From Escherichia coli (GTDB taxonomy: Bacteria > Pseudomonadota > Gammaproteobacteria > Enterobacterales > Enterobacteriaceae): 64,000 nucleotides of DNA. Positions 10,725-45,265 of the stretch are shown here, one piece after another. Below the pieces are notes generated by a model. The model made no database searches. It worked only from the letters and a program-made list of their open reading frames with translations, and was not told where the DNA came from. Position numbers and translations under genes: made by a program. The stretch is from assembly GCF_045037415.1 (NCBI RefSeq), contig NZ_CP173438.1, one strand, 5' to 3'. Position 1 is the stretch's first letter; every line of letters begins with the position of its first letter.

Positions 10725-10789
10725 GTTTTCTCCATAAAAAATGCCGGTAACAAGACCGGCATTTTCGCATAACTTAGACTACTAATGAC

Positions 10790-17185: not shown

Positions 17186-17208
17186 TTGCCTGTTGTTGTC
17201 AGCTTTGT

Positions 17209-17237
17209 AAAAAAACCCGCTCTGGCGGGTTTTTTTA
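17209..17237 (+). terminator. rpsT intrinsic terminator
   Basis: aaaaaaacccgc-tctg-gcgggttttttt: GC stem with T7 run, flanked by an A-run. Confidence 0.8.
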
Positions 17238-22036: not shown

Positions 22037-23203
22037 TCAAACTGATGGACGTAAACGAACGCGTAACCAGCTATATCCAATTACCGCCGAAGAAATTGAA
22101 CCGACAAGGATACCTAATTTTGCCCAGTTAATCAGTTCTGGATCTACGCTACCAAATGCCAGGCTGGCAATAAAGATAGACATAGTAAAACCGATACCGC
22201 ACAGGATACCAACCGCCATAATTTGCTGGTAAGTCGTTCCCTCTGGCAGATGTGCCAGTTTCAAACGCAGCGCCAACCAGCAGAACAGACTAATACCCAG
22301 TGGCTTGCCAATCAGCAAACCAGCGATGATCCCTAATGGCAGAATGGAGGTCAAACCTTCCAGCGTGACACCTTGCAGTGAAACGCCAGCATTAGCAAAT
22401 GCAAACAGCGGCAAAATCAGATACGCCACCCATGGATGCAAAACATGCTCCAGACGTTTAGCCGGAGAGCGCCCATGCTTCTCTTTTAACGGAATAAAGA
22501 AGCCGACAATGACGCCAGCCAGCGTTGCATGGACACCTGATTTCAACACCGCTGTCCACAGCACCACGCCAACCAGAATATAAACGCCCGTGCGGCGTAC
22601 ACCACACAGATTCAATACCGCGAGTACCGCAATTGCTACAGCCGCGACGCCAAGAGAGGCCATCGATAAGTCATTAGTGTAGAACAATGCGATGATAATG
22701 ATGGCCCCAAGATCGTCGATAATAGCCAGAGCCATCAAAAAGATCTTCAGCGCTAACGGAACACGACTTCCCAACAGCGCCAACACACCAAGTGCAAAGG
22801 CAATGTCAGTCGCCGCCGGGATTGCCCAGCCTTCGCGAGTGATAGGATCGGCATAGTTAAAAGCCAGATAGAGCAATGCCGGGACAATCATCCCGCCGAT
22901 TGCGGCAATAACAGGAAATGCCGCCTGGCGCAGACTGGCCAGCGAACCTTGCATCAGCTCGCGTTTAACTTCCAGACCAACCAACAGGAAAAATACCGCC
23001 ATCAGAGCGTCATTGATCCATAGCAGCATGTTCTTGTTGATCTCAAGTGTCCCAACCCGGAGCTGAACCGGCGTCTCAAGAAAGTCGTGATACCATCCAC
23101 TGGTTGCACCGCTGTTGGCCATAATCATCGCTAATACAGCGGCAATAATGAGAATAATGCCTCCCGAGGCATCACTGCTAAAGAATCGATGCAGATGTTT
23201 CAC
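22037..23203 (-). CDS. nhaA: Na+/H+ antiporter NhaA, 388 aa
   Basis: [42 protein letters not shown]... full length. Confidence 0.96.
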
Positions 23204-23437
23204 TTTTTATTTCTCTTCAGGTGAATAGATCGTTTTCACGATTTTACCCCGCACGAATCATCGTTAAAATCAGATTATAGTGTAGGAATAGCTCGCTTTT
23301 TACGATCTATTAAAAGAATTGCGCCATCAGCGAGAGATGAGTTTTTGATGCCCGAAAGCGGCGGCTGATGACCTTAAACCCCATTAATCATAGTCTAATG
23401 TCAAGATTTCTGAAGAAATTATTCGGAAAAGTAATAA

Positions 23438-24697
23438 TTAAATTGTTCCATGCTCTAGTTTTTTATTCCACAGATGTTTGAGGATATCTAATGTAGAAAC
23501 GACATTCGCAGGAGACATTCGGTTCAATGATATAAGGAAAGGATGGTTCTCCACAAAGTGGATAAAACGCGTCGCACTGTTCAATGTTGCATGCCGCATC
23601 TCGCGGACTTTCTTACTGCCAGTGAGATTGCATACAGCCATTGAATAATTGCGGTTAGAAAATGCACGCCAGACATTATTTCGTACCCCACCACTAAGGA
23701 ATAATCGCGGCGGAAAATCAATGGTGGCGGGTGCCACACCGCGCTCTTTGACAAAGGAAATATGGCAGCGACCTTGATGAATATGCTGCAAATTAGCCAT
23801 CAGGCAGCCGCCCAATATAAAGCATTCGTGATCAAGGTAATGCTGAACGTTGTTGGAATGCTCATCGGTCAGTATTCTGACCAGTTCAAAATGACGATAT
23901 GCCGGAAGAACCGGTTTTACCAACATTCCCGGATCGTTTTGATGTAAAACTGCCGGGCCGTAATCAATATCAAACAAGGTATCCCGCCGCATAGTAAGTA
24001 ACTCTTTGCGCTGGACATGATGTGCCAGCGTCCCTGGAGACATACGCTCTTCATAGTTCGATGTGTATTGATAATGTTGCTCTACGGCAGATGGGGAGTA
24101 ATTGGTTGAGATGGCAACCACCCTGCCGCTTTGTTCTTCTGCGGTAACAAGAGCATAAAGAGAGTTATTGCTACCATTATACTTGACGCGAAAAGCGCGG
24201 GTACTCAGGGTAATATCAGAAGCTGGGAAACACTGTCGACTTTCTTTATAGTTTGCTTCACGCGCTAATTTTAACAGTTCACGGCTAAGTCCAGTGCTGT
24301 TAAGAAGTAATGACTTTCTGATATCCGCAAGTGCCTCCCCTTGCTCAATCATCAATGCTAACTGGGCTCCTCGTGGTGTGGTAATTACATGTTCCAGAGT
24401 GATAAATGTTTTCTCACAATGATGGCAATACATTCTTCTCTGGCCTTGTGCAGAATATCCATATTTTTTGAGGGACGTGCCTCCGCAAGTTGAACATTGG
24501 CAAATCAAACCTCTCCAGGAGTGATTCACAATATTACGATAAATATTAAGCGACTGTTCAGATATCACTGGAAACAAGTAACCACATTCACGGCATAAAA
24601 TATTTTTACCCTGTGCGACATAATCCTGGCTATTCAGCAACCCCAGGTTTTTACATCCTGGTGTTTTGCAACAATCAACATTTACGTTGGTAAACAT
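23438..24697 (-). CDS. Cysteine-rich hypothetical protein (tandem CxxC zinc-ribbon-like N-terminus, then a helix-turn-helix-like segment and a ~300 aa domain of unknown function)
   Basis: Cys pairs at C12/C17, C37/C40, C68-C70-C73, C93/C96; likely start is the ATG at 24697 with an agggag SD (the ORF track uses the GTG at 24703); no radical-SAM CX3CX2C motif; AT-rich gene. Confidence 0.6.
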   Translation of the reverse strand: MFTNVNVDCCKTPGCKNLGLLNSQDYVAQGKNILCRECGYLFPVISEQSLNIYRNIVNHSWRGLICQCSTCGGTSLKKYGYSAQGQRRMYCHHCEKTFITLEHVITTPRGAQLALMIEQGEALADIRKSLLLNSTGLSRELLKLAREANYKESRQCFPASDITLSTRAFRVKYNGSNNSLYALVTAEEQSGRVVAISTNYSPSAVEQHYQYTSNYEERMSPGTLAHHVQRKELLTMRRDTLFDIDYGPAVLHQNDPGMLVKPVLPAYRHFELVRILTDEHSNNVQHYLDHECFILGGCLMANLQHIHQGRCHISFVKERGVAPATIDFPPRLFLSGGVRNNVWRAFSNRNYSMAVCNLTGSKKVREMRHATLNSATRFIHFVENHPFLISLNRMSPANVVSTLDILKHLWNKKLEHGTI

Positions 24698-24825
24698 ATC
24701 CACTCCCTGCGAATAGCCGTATCTTGATATTGTTCAACGCGAAAAGAACCTGATTCAATGCGTAGCACTGAATCAGGCGGGCATAGCCCTAAATGGCATA
24801 CATTACATTTATTATGATTATCAGG

Positions 24826-26319
24826 TTAGCCCCAGGTCACCGCTTCTGGTTTATCACCTCTGGCTTTCATTAGAGAATCATTATCAATATCAGTTTTATA
24901 TTTTAAAAACTTACCATACATCTGTTTTTCAATATCTGGTTTTTTACCGATCAGATTAAGTGTTTCATAACGATCAGATTTCAGATTGTAGAGATATTTC
25001 GGTTTATTATTGCGATCGATAATCATCTTCCAGTCACCATCACGGATCGCCCATTCATCGGTTGGATCATCCTGGAATGGCATATCAATCCCGAAAATTA
25101 ATGGCTTTTCGCGTTTCAATGCTTTTTGCTCAAGAACAGGAACCAGCGATTCACCATCGAAAGTACGGTCTGTAGGTAATTTGAAGTTCATCATTTTCGC
25201 TAAAGTAGGCATCCAGTCCAGACCATAAACGGGTGTATCTGAAACCATTCCCTGTGGTAGATGTTTACCATATTTAATAATGGCTGGAACACGAATTCCG
25301 CCTTCCCAAAGGTTATCCTTGCGACCGCGTAATCCATCCGTTTCCCCTGCCAAATTCAGCTCATACACTTTGCGCGCTTCACGCGTTACCGGACCGTTAT
25401 CACTGGTAAAAATAACGATTGTGTTATCTTCTTCACCCACAGCTTTGATTTTATCCAGCACTTTTCCAACCTGTGCATCCAGATAGCTGATATTGGCATA
25501 ATATTCCCCCACACCACGCCAGGGTTTGTCTGCCCAGTCGCCATAAAATAAATCAGGATGCTGCTTCTGATACGCGCTCATATATTGTGAGTACATATCG
25601 AGGTATTTTTTGGGCGAAGCCAGGGGGCTATGCACTTCGGTAAAAGCAACATAGAGGAAGAAAGGCTTGCTGTCCTTTTTGTTATCCAGCCAGTTGACGA
25701 CTTCCGAACTGACATACTCACCGCTCATTTTATCGGCTCGTGGAGTGGGTTGCCCGTTACGTAGCCAGCCTGTCGGGTAAACCATGCCATAACGCGGGCG
25801 TTCTTTAGCGTTATCCAGCGTGGCGTCGGTAACAAAGCCCGCCGTATTAACCAGTGAGTAATCAAAGCCCATATCTTGTGCTTGTGGCTGATCGGTGCGA
25901 TCGCTGCCTGCATTCAGATGCAGCTTACCCATCATTGCCGTGTCGTACCCTTGCGCTTTGAGTAGATTAGCAATCGTGAGTTCGTTACGCCCTAAGGCAA
26001 CATCTTTGCCTGAAGGAATCCATGAGCGAATTCCAGTACGAAATGGCATCCGGCCGGTTAATAGCCCTGCGCGTGAAGGTGAACTTAAAGGAGCGGGGGC
26101 ATAGTAGTCAGTAAATTTGACCCCTTCCTGGGCAAGCCTGTCGATATTAGGTGTTTTAACGATCTGATGACCATATGTTGCTAAATCGCCATAACCTAAA
26201 TCATCCGCCATAATAATGACTAAATTAGGTTGTTTAGCCTCTGCGGCTAAGGCAGGACTAAAAGCATTCCCTGTGCAAACTGCAAGGCCGATCAAACTGG
26301 CCATTAACGTTTTCTGCAT
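24826..26319 (-). CDS. Periplasmic Ser-type sulfatase (arylsulfatase family), 497 aa
   Basis: Signal peptide MQKTLMASLIGLAVCTGNAFSPALAAEA; sulfatase signature S79-S-P-S-R-AGLL-TGR where the formylglycine position is Ser (codon AGT on the minus strand, plus-strand 26083..26085); metal-binding DD at IIMADDLGYGD. Confidence 0.85.
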   Translation of the reverse strand: MQKTLMASLIGLAVCTGNAFSPALAAEAKQPNLVIIMADDLGYGDLATYGHQIVKTPNIDRLAQEGVKFTDYYAPAPLSSPSRAGLLTGRMPFRTGIRSWIPSGKDVALGRNELTIANLLKAQGYDTAMMGKLHLNAGSDRTDQPQAQDMGFDYSLVNTAGFVTDATLDNAKERPRYGMVYPTGWLRNGQPTPRADKMSGEYVSSEVVNWLDNKKDSKPFFLYVAFTEVHSPLASPKKYLDMYSQYMSAYQKQHPDLFYGDWADKPWRGVGEYYANISYLDAQVGKVLDKIKAVGEEDNTIVIFTSDNGPVTREARKVYELNLAGETDGLRGRKDNLWEGGIRVPAIIKYGKHLPQGMVSDTPVYGLDWMPTLAKMMNFKLPTDRTFDGESLVPVLEQKALKREKPLIFGIDMPFQDDPTDEWAIRDGDWKMIIDRNNKPKYLYNLKSDRYETLNLIGKKPDIEKQMYGKFLKYKTDIDNDSLMKARGDKPEAVTWG

Positions 26320-26339
26320 AATTATTCCCTGATAAAAAA

Positions 26340-27101
26340 TTAGAAATCATAACCAAGCATATAAATCATTTGATCGCCAAAGCCATCGTAGCCCAGCTTA
26401 TTATCGAAATAACGCCACGTCACACTGGCTTTCCAGCGAGGATAGAACTTCCAGGCAATAGTTAAACCGCCATTTAACCCGTTCCGGCCAAATTGCTGCT
26501 CCGTGTAAGCATCGTTCCTGTCCAGTTCTATTTCATTCCAGTTAGATAAAACAAATTTTTCGTCAAATAACGTAAATGGTAATACTGCTGTCCAGCCAAC
26601 AACATAACCATTCCAACCATTCGTTTGACCATATTTAGCTGATACGTAGTCACCAGATTGATTATGTAATCCAATATACGGTTTAAAAAAGCCCCACTCG
26701 CCGTTCCAGCCGAGGTAACCGAATCCATAAAACATGTCCAGATCGTCACCCCATGAGTTATCCCATTGGCCATAAATTTTGCCAAAGAATGTCATATCAG
26801 AGTCAAAGAGTCTGACATGCGTCATTACTGAAACCGTATGATTTCGCCCTGCTACAGCATGATTGAGTACATTACTTTCATAAAATGAGTAAAATTCTGC
26901 TTCTTTAAAATTTACCCCAAAATCCGCAGTCACTTTCCATACTTCACCACGGTGAGTGTTTACAAATCCACTATTCCAGTCTGCATAACCCGCATTTATT
27001 GAACCAAAGGTTCCTTTATATTCTAATGAAGAATATGCAGGAAAATGATAGATAGCTGTTATCAGGGTACACGCAATAAGAAGTCGTCTTTTGGCAGACA
27101 T
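26340..27101 (-). CDS. Outer-membrane beta-barrel channel, Tsx/OmpK-like, 253 aa
   Basis: Signal peptide; aromatic-rich alternating pattern; C-terminal ...MLGYDF ending in Phe; general resemblance to the Tsx nucleoside channel family (from memory, not a computed alignment). Confidence 0.6.
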   Translation of the reverse strand: MSAKRRLLIACTLITAIYHFPAYSSLEYKGTFGSINAGYADWNSGFVNTHRGEVWKVTADFGVNFKEAEFYSFYESNVLNHAVAGRNHTVSVMTHVRLFDSDMTFFGKIYGQWDNSWGDDLDMFYGFGYLGWNGEWGFFKPYIGLHNQSGDYVSAKYGQTNGWNGYVVGWTAVLPFTLFDEKFVLSNWNEIELDRNDAYTEQQFGRNGLNGGLTIAWKFYPRWKASVTWRYFDNKLGYDGFGDQMIYMLGYDF

Positions 27102-27611
27102 ATAATATGTTCTCCATTCATTGTTTTTATGATTCCATAGGAATTAATACACCAGACAATTCATTTTTATTAAGAATGACCAGGCCAGTATATTTAAAGA
27201 TGACTATCGAAGCGTGATGAAGATCGCAGATTACTTTTGCGAACGGGCGGAGGGATATCGTGTTTCAGAAAATGTGTCTGTTTTAAATATCACCCTTTGA
27301 TTTATAGGCATTTTTCATGATGAACTTAGCATTGGCTGCTGAACGTATTTCTTTGTCTCTCTATAGTATTACACTAACCTTTAATAATTAATTTCCTTTA
27401 GCCATTCACTTTTGATAGAGGAAAACACCTTTTTTGTGAATCCCTGGATATATTTAAGTTAAATAAATTGATGTATTGAAATATTATTCCGCAAAAATGC
27501 GAGGCGTCTTCAGAAAAAGAATTGATAAAACAGAAGTGAATTAAAAGCGCAGTATAATAGCGGCGGGTGCTTGAGGCTGTCTGTCTCAGGCATTGGCTGA
27601 ACGGCAGATAG

Positions 27612-27666
27612 AGAAAAGCCCCGAGTGATATTTTACCATCAACCCGAGGCCCCCTATATGCAGAAC
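27612..27666 (-). ncRNA. sokC: Predicted Sok-type antisense RNA of the hokC/mokC type I toxin-antitoxin locus
   Basis: Position inferred from the conserved hok/sok architecture (antisense RNA overlapping the mok start); no independent promoter or terminator was verified. Confidence 0.3.
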
Positions 27667-27867
27667 ACATGTAGAGTGCCTCTTACTGACCGAAAGGTCA
27701 AGGAGAAGAGAGCAATGAAGCAGCATAAGGCGATGATTGTCGCCCTGATCGTCATCTGTATCACCGCCGTAGTGGCGGCGCTGGTAACGAGAAAAGACCT
27801 CTGTGAGGTTCACATCCGAACTGGCCAGACGGAGGTTGCTGTTTTCACGGCTTACGAATCCGAGTAA
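27658..27867 (+). CDS. mokC: Mok-type leader reading frame overlapping hokC, 69 aa
   Basis: Frame M-QNTCRVPLTDRKVKEKRA... running into hokC; same 210-nt length as K-12 mokC. Confidence 0.55.
   Translation: MQNTCRVPLTDRKVKEKRAMKQHKAMIVALIVICITAVVAALVTRKDLCEVHIRTGQTEVAVFTAYESE
27715..27867 (+). CDS. hokC: Hok-family membrane toxin, 50 aa
   Basis: MKQHKAMIVALIVICITAVVAALVTRKDLCEVHIRTGQTEVAVFTAYESE, the Hok/Gef toxin sequence. Confidence 0.88.
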   Translation: MKQHKAMIVALIVICITAVVAALVTRKDLCEVHIRTGQTEVAVFTAYESE

Positions 27868-27941
27868 GAGCAACGGCGGGGAGTGATCCCCGCCACTTTA
27901 CAGGTGCTCGCATATCTTCAACGCACCCTTTTTTTTACCTG

Positions 27942-27966
27942 GCCTGCCCACGGGCAGGCTTTTGGG
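27942..27966 (+). terminator. Putative intrinsic terminator after hokC
   Basis: gcctgcc-cacg-ggcaggc hairpin followed by tttt. Confidence 0.45.
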
Positions 27967-27970
27967 GAGG

Positions 27971-29101
27971 TTAGCGAGTCAGGTCGTCGAAAAACTTCTT
28001 CACACCATCAAAGAAGCTCTTTGAGCGCGGGCTGTTGTGCTCGCCGGTTGGGCCACCAAAGCTTTCTTGCAGCTCTTGCAGCAGCTGTTTCTGCTTCTCG
28101 TTCAGGCCTACCGGTGTTTCGACGACAACGCGGCACAGCAAATCACCCTGTGCGCCGCCGCGGACAGACTTGACGCCTTTACCACGCATACGGAACAGCT
28201 TACCGGTCTGGGTTTCGCCAGGAACTTTCAGTTTAACGCGACCATCAAGGGTCGGCACTTCGATTTCGCCGCCCAGCGCCGCCATAGCGAAGTTGATCGG
28301 GACTTCGCAATACAGGTTGTTGCCTTCACGCTCGAAAATCGGGTGCTGTTTAACCTGAACCTGAACGTACAGGTCGCCTGCCGGTGCGCCGTGTTCGCCC
28401 GCTTCACCTTCGCCCGCAAGACGGATGCGGTCTCCAGTGTCCACCCCTGCCGGGATTTTAACGGACAGCGTTTTGCTGCGCTCAACACGACCATGACCAT
28501 GACATTTGTTGCACGGATCTTTGATCAGCGTACCGCGGCCCTGACAGTGTGGACAGGTCTGCTGCACGGCAAAGAAACCCTGGCGCATCTGCACCTGGCC
28601 AGAACCATGACAGGTCGGACAGGTCTGCGGCTGTGTACCTGGTTTTGCACCGCTACCGTGGCAAACGTCACACTCTTCCAGAGTCGGAATGCGGATCTCT
28701 TTGGTCACGCCACGTACAGCTTCTTCGAGGGTGAGCTCCATGTTATAGCGTAAATCAGCACCGCGCGCCGCACGTTGACGACCACGTCCGCCGCCAAAAA
28801 TATCGCCGAAAACGTCACCAAAAATATCGCTGAAGTCTGCGCCGCCGCCAAAACCGCCGCCGCCCATGCCGCCTTGCTCAAACGCAGCATGACCATACTG
28901 ATCGTATGCCGCACGTTTTTGCGAGTCGGTCAGAACTTCATAAGCTTCCTTGATCTCTTTAAATTTCGCCTCGGCCTCTTTGTCACCCTGGTTACGGTCC
29001 GGGTGGTATTTCATGGCCAGGCGTTTGTAGGCCTTTTTGATTTCACGCTCTTCCGCTGTTTTGGAAACGCCTAAAATCTCGTAATAATCTTGCTTAGCCA
29101 T
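27971..29101 (-). CDS. dnaJ: Hsp40 co-chaperone DnaJ, 376 aa
   Basis: [37 protein letters not shown] (J domain, HPD), Gly/Phe-rich region, four CxxCxGxG zinc-finger repeats; the ORF-track start at 29131 is an upstream extension. Confidence 0.96.
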
Positions 29102-33957: not shown

Positions 33958-34071
33958 CAAGATTTTTCCGTTTAAACAGTCTCGTTAAACAGAATGATAC
34001 ACTGCGAAGGGAGTGACAGACAGGTTTCAGAAGAGGTAGCGTGACCGACTTCCCGGTCACGCTAAGAATGA

Positions 34072-37580: not shown

Positions 37581-37619
37581 GTTTGTAGTCAATGCCGGAT
37601 GGCAATCCGGCATTGATAT

Positions 37620-42837: not shown

Positions 42838-42878
42838 CGAAAAAAAAAGCCCGCACTGTCAGGTGCGGGCTTTTTTCT
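42838..42878 (-). terminator. thr attenuator (leader terminator hairpin)
   Basis: Minus strand: aaaaaagcccgcacctgacagtgcgggcttttttttt between thrL and thrA. Confidence 0.85.
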
Positions 42879-45229: not shown

Positions 45230-45265
45230 AAAAAAAACGGCGCTTTTTAGCGCCGTTTTTATTTT
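45230..45265. terminator. Bidirectional intrinsic terminator between convergent arcA and creD
   Basis: aaaaaaaacggcgc-ttttt-agcgccgtttttattttt: GC stem flanked by an A-run upstream and T-run downstream. Confidence 0.7.

Follow-up and report, generated by a model that had tools for sequence, protein, structure and literature searches.

The window analysed here, a 64,000-nt stretch of the chromosome of a type B2 Escherichia coli, contains a locus that is 99.7% identical to that of strain 536. Read along the minus strand, dnaK and dnaJ, the mokC/sok module, a porin gene, a sulfatase gene, an intergenic spacer, a gene for a Cys-rich protein, and nhaA and nhaR follow one another at this locus, which about 1275 out of 5426 complete E. 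coli genomes carry in a single copy. The palindromic element studied here belongs to the 3' untranslated region of the sulfatase gene (24826..26319, minus strand). The features surrounding it are listed below in the direction of transcription.

26340-27101, minus strand: Tsx/OmpK-like porin gene, next to the sulfatase gene
24826..26319, minus strand: sulfatase gene, 497 aa (ORF; Pfam PF00884, E=1e-59; RefSeq 'sulfatase family protein')
24800..24825, minus strand: A/T-rich linker right after the sulfatase stop codon, weakly conserved (entropy 0.98 bits vs 1.10 bits at synonymous sites)
24773..24799, minus strand: conserved block ATG CCA TTT AGG GCT ATG CCC GCC TGA, a candidate 8-codon mini-ORF MPFRAMPA* (entropy, codon-position counts)
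24779..24789, minus strand: small hairpin GGGC-UAU-GCCC, the second palindrome of the preliminary description (near-invariant stem)
24748..24778, minus strand: stem-loop of the predicted terminator, GCCUGAUUCAGUGC-UAC-GCAUUGAAUCAGGU, which contains the 9-bp repeat of the preliminary description (fold, covariation, strand asymmetry)
24741..24747, minus strand: T tract UCUUUUC directly 3' of the stem, an A-run on the plus strand (terminator scan)
24716..24740, minus strand: junction without conservation, at the site of a missing gene of about 1.2 kb for the anaerobic sulfatase-maturating enzyme, anSME (allele alignment)
24698..24715, minus strand: conserved translation-initiation region of the Cys-rich gene, UAUUCGCAGGGAGUGGAU, with the Shine-Dalgarno sequence AGGGAG (alignments)
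23438..24697, minus strand: Cys-rich gene, 419 aa, with an IS1-like zinc-ribbon N-terminus and an uncharacterised C-terminal part (ORF, RefSeq, NCBIfam)

The spacer between the sulfatase and Cys-rich genes measures 122 bp, as previously described, when the GTG start of the Cys-rich gene is used, and 128 bp from the better supported ATG start, which is favoured by RefSeq, by the alignment of homologues and by the AGGGAG Shine-Dalgarno sequence. A scan of positions 23000-28000 against Rfam 15 with E values up to 10 gave no match in 24700-24830. Its sole significant match was the sok antitoxin RNA (116 bits, E=6e-27, 27565-27717, plus strand), which lies beside the annotated mokC toxin gene and directly upstream of the porin gene. 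The porin/sulfatase/Cys-rich segment (about 23300-27300) exists in deeply divergent E. coli alleles with ~86% DNA identity and 84% identity of the Cys-rich protein, and its flanks are nearly constant between those alleles (DnaJ is WP_001118464.1 in five of five annotated strains, and NhaA is 98.6-99.7% identical). This divergence inside constant flanks suggests that the polymorphism is old or that the segment was recombined in from another lineage of Escherichia.

Both palindromes of the preliminary description are present, the perfect 9-bp arms CCTGATTCA-N11-TGAATCAGG at 24749-24777 and GGGC-ATA-GCCC at 24779-24789, and the larger repeat is longer than first noted, with 13-nt arms, a 3-nt gap and one G.T pair. 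On the minus strand, which is the sense strand for both flanking genes, the larger repeat folds into a hairpin (24778-24748) of 14 pairs, including 2 G-U and 6 G-C, with a 3-nt loop and an energy of -20.5 kcal/mol, which appears in both the MFE and the centroid fold of the spacer. The hairpin is directly adjoined by TCTTTTC (24747-24741), and the consensus scan placed the best-scoring terminator-like site of the region here, on the minus strand, with the tail TCTTTTCGCG. It had been stated that neither palindrome is followed by a T-run, which holds for the plus strand only; the T-run was missed because that non-coding strand was read, both flanking genes being on the minus strand. The ensuing claim that the palindromes are no classical terminator therefore fails. 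The T tract of the window is interrupted, has 5 T in 8 nt with a longest run of 4, and is shorter than the ancestral UCUUUUAUUU. The distance from the sulfatase stop codon to the hairpin is about 47-50 nt, and this position is the same in all loci with the element.

A perfect 9-bp inverted repeat is unremarkable by itself. The window has 11 such repeats with spacers of up to 12 nt, compared to 2.0 +/- 1.5 in shuffled windows, and most of these 11 are obvious terminators. For the repeat at the sulfatase junction, chance is excluded by its conservation and covariation. Further perfect inverted repeats, 11-14 bp long and with short loops, lie at 17208-17237, 42843-42876, 45233-45260, 10738-10765, 37589-37616, and 34037-34064, several of which are bordered by A and T runs on either side and look like bidirectional terminators.

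Orthologous loci were gathered by a genome scan with the Cys-rich protein family, by exact-protein look-ups, and by searching metagenomes with a degenerate pattern for the sulfatase C-terminus, which was chosen to avoid biasing the untranslated region. The resulting set comprises 37 distinct sequences from Escherichia, Salmonella, Citrobacter, Klebsiella, Kluyvera, Kosakonia, Phytobacter, and metagenomic lineages. Compensatory changes were observed at 10 of the 14 main-helix pairs in the 37 sequences (9-10 of 14 over the 19- and 37-sequence sets). Standard pairs account for 96.3% of cells in the 37 sequences vs 26-42% when the 3' partners are slid. The 19-sequence alignment agrees, the range over both sets being 96-97% paired vs 24-42% slid, and the observed covariation score was reached by none of 500 shuffles. 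The hairpin has an energy of -15 to -24 kcal/mol in every orthologue, and the 8 nt after the stem contain 5-6 T in all 33 unique orthologues, with an entropy of 0.64 bits in this tail vs 1.76 bits beyond the T tract. The terminator was independently called by the scan in Salmonella and Kosakonia, and the Citrobacter-like orthologue was not called by it, owing to an internal mismatch. An absence of conservation at orthologous loci, which the preliminary description had named as evidence against a functional palindrome, is the opposite of what was found: the hairpin is conserved with covariation in 37 orthologues.

The strand on which the element acts follows from the same alignment. In the main helix of the 37 sequences, G-U occupies 69 cells and A-C 7, and pairing reaches 96.5% when the alignment is read as the sense strand vs 84.3% as antisense. 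The excess of G-U over A-C implies an RNA helix on the sense strand rather than a DNA palindrome. The stem can also be followed within E. coli, where the allele with 86% identity carries a C-G to U-A double change beside the loop and a G-U to A-U change and keeps the pairing; this allele has a longer T tract, scrambled sequence over the next 25 nt and, further on, a conserved ribosome-binding region of the Cys-rich gene. A covariance model built from the first alignment finds exactly one copy per locus, always directly 3' of the sulfatase stop codon and on the sense strand, and no second copy anywhere in the window. By the same model, the motif is absent in the more distant relatives Franconibacter, Enterobacter pulveris, Citrobacter amalonaticus, and Buttiauxella. 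At the same junction, the first three have different hairpins and in Buttiauxella the two genes are directly coupled. A REP-like dispersed repeat was considered and rejected, since each of the 1275 complete E. coli genomes with the element, out of 5426, has it at a single place, and it is present once in the window. These comparisons establish that the element is an RNA hairpin under selection, built like an intrinsic terminator. Based on these results, we consider it likely that the inverted repeat forms the stem of a Rho-independent terminator acting on the minus strand in the sulfatase 3' untranslated region, and most likely a leaky intercistronic one. This terminator was previously unannotated, and its prediction is well supported.

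Comparison of gene order among the orthologous loci revealed an additional gene next to the hairpin. The sulfatase and Cys-rich genes are separated by a gene for a radical-SAM/SPASM protein of 395-400 aa, anSME, in Salmonella, Kosakonia, most Citrobacter, several metagenomic lineages, and two of three Phytobacter species. In these loci, the hairpin with its T tract lies between the sulfatase stop and the anSME start, 15-25 nt before the latter, a distance too short to hold a promoter, and the Cys-rich gene begins ~20 nt past the anSME stop with the same conserved ribosome-binding region. The hairpin is thus fixed in position relative to the sulfatase stop codon and not to the Cys-rich gene, from which it is ~1.3 kb upstream in most genera. 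This position, ahead of anSME, contradicts the proposed dedicated control of the Cys-rich gene. An arylsulfate sulfotransferase gene (PF05935) is found between the Cys-rich gene and nhaA in Salmonella and some other lineages (L026, L029, and L038; 4870-6590 in each) and is absent from Escherichia.

The anSME gene is absent in all Escherichia examined, namely the E. coli alleles, E. whittamii, E. albertii, and one further species. Three segments make up the Escherichia spacer: the sulfatase 3' untranslated region, complete as far as the first 7-8 nt of the T tract, then ~25 unconserved nt, and finally the last 21 nt of the anSME/Cys-rich junction. These 21 nt are the only match to that junction, no anSME remnants being present in the Escherichia spacer, and the intervening stretch at 24716-24740 is strongly diverged even among E. 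coli alleles. On this comparison, the sulfatase/Cys-rich spacer of Escherichia is a deletion product. The terminator now fronts the Cys-rich gene because Escherichia deleted anSME, and in the window about 50 nt separate the T tract/hairpin from the Cys-rich start. Independent losses of the gene occurred in Klebsiella oxytoca, Klebsiella spallanzanii, Kluyvera intermedia, Phytobacter massiliensis, and some lineages from metagenomes. In one metagenomic locus (L034), anSME fragments remain that comprise the first 20 and the last 32 codons. As reconstructed here, the hairpin did not evolve to control the Cys-rich gene, though this gene now depends on predicted read-through. The earlier suggestion of an RNA stem-loop controlling read-through was near the truth with respect to read-through itself, but the element is a predicted sense-strand terminator that is not dedicated to controlling the Cys-rich gene.

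The proteins encoded on either side of the spacer were also inspected. The sulfatase motif PAPLSSPSR near aa 75-83 has a Ser at the formylglycine position, and Ser-type sulfatases need an AtsB-type radical-SAM maturase. A sulfatase motif of the form (C/S)X(P/A)XR has been described (PMC7771511). The Escherichia sulfatases (L001-L008) all have Ser (SSPSR) and no adjacent anSME, and the non-Escherichia sulfatases (L009-L025) all have Cys (CSPSR), including those without anSME. The Escherichia sulfatase may have its maturase encoded elsewhere, or it may be inactive or changed in function. One E. coli copy of the sulfatase gene is annotated as a pseudogene. The Cys-rich protein occurs only in Enterobacteriaceae, in synteny with the sulfatase cluster, and matches NCBIfam NF050000, an IS1/IS1595-type zinc-binding segment, at aa 68-99. 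Its AlphaFold model (mean pLDDT 68.5) gave weak matches only (E of 0.014 or worse), all of them RNase-H-fold transposases or integrases, with ISCth4 as the best (E=0.014). The structure matches were too weak to assign a function; the protein may be a domesticated transposase or a regulator.

In the proposed mechanism, RNA polymerase would transcribe 24778-24748, the RNA would fold as the 14-pair hairpin, and the U-rich tract at 24747-24741 would weaken the RNA-DNA hybrid, so that a fraction of transcripts stops there. A scan with promoter consensus found no promoter-like site between the terminator and the next start codon in the window or in the Salmonella, Kosakonia, and Citrobacter-like loci. 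By this layout, the terminator must be leaky because the distal genes would be transcribed only through it. In the ancestral cluster of porin, sulfatase, anSME, and Cys-rich genes, a leaky terminator would most likely yield much sulfatase and little maturase transcript, and the hairpin would most likely also give the sulfatase mRNA a stable 3' end. In Escherichia, the Cys-rich gene would presumably be expressed through terminator read-through. Termination itself, its leakiness, and its role in stoichiometry are predictions of this model. Given the short, interrupted T tract and the stem with 6 G-C among 14 pairs, the terminator of the window could be weak, or its hairpin could serve mainly to protect the 3' end.

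A plain terminator leaves unexplained why the 25 nt upstream of the stem, which include the conserved block and the small hairpin, are conserved above synonymous sites. The entropy is 0.42 bits for the block and 0.12 bits for the small GGGC/GCCC stem, compared to 1.10 bits at the third positions of the adjacent sulfatase codons and 1.76 bits past the T tract. The small hairpin is paired in 95.8% of cells with zero compensatory changes, unlike the main stem, and the first two bases of its loop vary, whereas the third is always U. The block consensus ATG CCA YTT AGG GCN NTG CCC RCC TGA would encode MPLRA(M/L/V)P(A/T)*, its UGA falling within the terminator 5' arm in Escherichia and many other genera. 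Counted by parsimony, changes at the three codon positions number 26/3/23; a permutation test, chosen after seeing the data, gave P = 0.01 for any phase and P = 0.05 for the non-stem columns. With P of about 0.01-0.05, the evidence for a mini-ORF is suggestive and provides a lead only.

Translation of this block would turn the terminator into a regulated attenuator, a proposal that we regard as tentative and, on balance, improbable. In the window, a ribosome would start at AUG 24799, synthesize MPFRAMPA, and stop at UGA 24775-24773 in the 5' arm, where it would block the hairpin and thereby permit read-through into anSME or, in Escherichia, into the Cys-rich gene; without translation, termination would ensue, though the chance that the switch works in this way is small. 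The start is retained as ATG in 30 of the 33 unique sequences and as TTG in two, being lost only in one locus that lacks anSME, and the substitutions are mostly synonymous or conservative (CCA/CCT, TTT/TTC, CTT/CTC/CTG, AGG/CGG, GCN, and NTG for M/L/V), in keeping with the codon-position counts. The Klebsiella oxytoca lineage has changed 8 of the 27 bases and retains the 8-codon ORF and the same stop (MLPGAIPA*), with an extra synonymous CCA/CCT change. Moreover, the frame ends in, or passes through, the terminator in every lineage with the ORF, coding and pairing constraint together would account for an invariant small stem next to a covarying main stem, and the position of a stop codon relative to an attenuator loop is known to control pyrE (PMC2784333). 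In contrast, no Shine-Dalgarno sequence precedes the ATG, the first codon positions vary as much as the third, and radical changes (R to W, P to S) are among the substitutions. The stop is not conserved, being TGG in Citrobacter and CGA in Kosakonia/Phytobacter in linkage with stem covariation, a 1-nt deletion shifts the frame of the block in the anSME-less Phytobacter massiliensis, P is only 0.05 without the stem columns, and the proposal lacks a candidate signal. A translated leader MPLRA(M/L/V)P(A/T) with its conserved rare AGG/CGG arginine codon, which would bring a ribosome over the 5' arm to switch on anSME transcription (in Escherichia, that of the Cys-rich gene) and might respond to a signal by ribosome pausing, is thus a speculative proposal.

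Several observations were made on this frame and on alternative pairings around it. In P. ursingii (L021, about 2700-2790), the mini-ORF frame has no stop and continues in frame into the anSME start codon, and in Citrobacter it crosses the hairpin to overlap the anSME start in another frame. In the C. youngae record (L010, about 190-215), a homopolymer at the anSME start is longer by one A than in two near-identical contigs. An antiterminator of the trp type was tried and rejected: AACCUGAU after the stop codon (24827-24820) can pair with the 3' arm (AACCUGAU/AUCAGGUU) in E. coli, and this pairing is absent in other genera. The consensus fold likewise gives only the two hairpins and no alternative antiterminator pairing.

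Conservation of the block just upstream of the terminator hairpin (0.42 vs 1.10 bits at synonymous sites) could alternatively reflect a 3'UTR-derived small RNA of ~60 nt, running from ~24803 to the T tract, either processed or transcribed from GTGACC-18-CATAAT, with the 5' block UAUGCCAYUUAGGGC as its seed. The layout resembles that of known 3'UTR-derived small RNAs such as UhpU (PMC12704781), and the window has a promoter-like site at 24840-24811 (GTGACC from 24840; -10-like CATAAT at 24816-24811). This site is missing in the Salmonella, Kosakonia, and Citrobacter-like loci, and the idea of a separate promoter at this place was rejected. Furthermore, the spacer has no Rfam match even at E values up to 10, T runs are at most 4 long in the window and 4-6 in the orthologues, vs at least 7 in Hfq-binding small RNAs (PMC5558911), and conservation has a period of three instead of forming a contiguous seed. 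When the block was tested for complementarity to the translation-initiation regions of the genes of the locus in four species, z-scores ranged from -1.2 to +1.8, none above shuffled controls. A small RNA is very unlikely on these grounds. It is also unlikely, if slightly less so, that the intercistronic hairpin protects the mRNA instead of terminating transcription, that is, that it blocks 3'-to-5' exonucleases and stabilises the sulfatase segment of a polycistronic transcript. A stable, conserved hairpin between cistrons of one operon would be expected of such an element, and the weak, interrupted T tract of the window might terminate poorly; however, a pure stabiliser would have no use for the T-rich tail that is kept in every orthologue (5-6 T of 8; 0.64 vs 1.76 bits). 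The two roles are in any case compatible, since terminator hairpins stabilise 3' ends too.

The remaining possibility, a palindromic DNA operator for a dimeric regulator, had been raised in the preliminary description and could involve, for example, the zinc-ribbon Cys-rich protein acting on its own gene. Its dyad symmetry would suit such a site, and the IS1-type zinc-binding N-terminus of the Cys-rich protein could bind DNA. However, the arms covary, with 10 of 14 pairs changing on both sides, and preserve no recognition sequence; the asymmetry between 69 G-U and 7 A-C cells indicates selection on one RNA strand; no promoter-like site overlaps the palindrome; the adjoining T tract is conserved; and the palindrome keeps its place behind the sulfatase stop codon, which in most genera puts it 1.3 kb away from the Cys-rich gene. 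An operator is thus largely refuted and can be regarded as extremely improbable, which leaves the leaky intercistronic terminator as the preferred interpretation.

Taken alone, the element is a routine addition to the annotation, a terminator so far unannotated in an accessory locus present in about a quarter of complete E. coli genomes. Its wider distribution points to expression partitioning by a predicted terminator in a sulfatase/maturase operon conserved across Enterobacteriaceae, and to re-wiring by a deletion that placed the Cys-rich gene directly behind this terminator in Escherichia. If the mini-ORF is translated, the locus would offer a compact, testable case of translation-controlled read-through outside the biosynthetic operons known for such attenuators, and its leader would be part of a previously undescribed translation-coupled attenuator in a sulfatase operon. 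In the literature on STM0035/STM0036 and on sulfatase/anSME operons, nothing was found on this element. In a table of SsrB ChIP-chip results, a probe overlaps the 5' intergenic region of STM0036, and the SL0037-SL0038 operon is 4-fold down in an ssrB mutant (PMC2837388). If STM0036 is the anSME gene, these data would point to a promoter or to the binding of a regulator in the A/T-rich linker of Salmonella (the spacer equivalent at 2187-2285 of L029).

With respect to known systems, the pyrBI leader of E. coli is an attenuator of the same translation-coupled logic as that considered for the mini-ORF. In rph-pyrE of E. coli, the distance of the stop codon from the attenuator loop sets the expression of pyrE (PMC2784333). 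The sulfatase locus resembles both in having a terminator hairpin between genes of one operon, and its candidate mini-ORF would stop in the 5' arm. It differs from them in that it has no U-rich pause region, no nucleotide-sensing logic, and no Shine-Dalgarno sequence, and in that the stop position varies among genera, the mini-ORF being a candidate only. The conserved block directly upstream of the terminator of the parental mRNA is a feature shared with 3'UTR-derived small RNAs of Enterobacteriaceae such as UhpU (PMC12704781), from which the locus departs by a T run below the at least 7 T of that class (PMC5558911). It also matches no Rfam family and shows no complementarity to targets among the genes of the locus, and its conservation follows a period of three. 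Rho-independent terminators occur inside operons, as exemplified by the internal terminator of the rpsU-dnaG-rpoD operon, and partial termination at such sites reduces the expression of distal genes. As in rpsU-dnaG-rpoD, the sulfatase locus has a stem-loop and U tract between co-oriented cistrons and no promoter before the next gene. Unlike in that operon, partial termination is a prediction here, the 25 nt upstream of it are unusually conserved, and its downstream partner, anSME, has been deleted in Escherichia.
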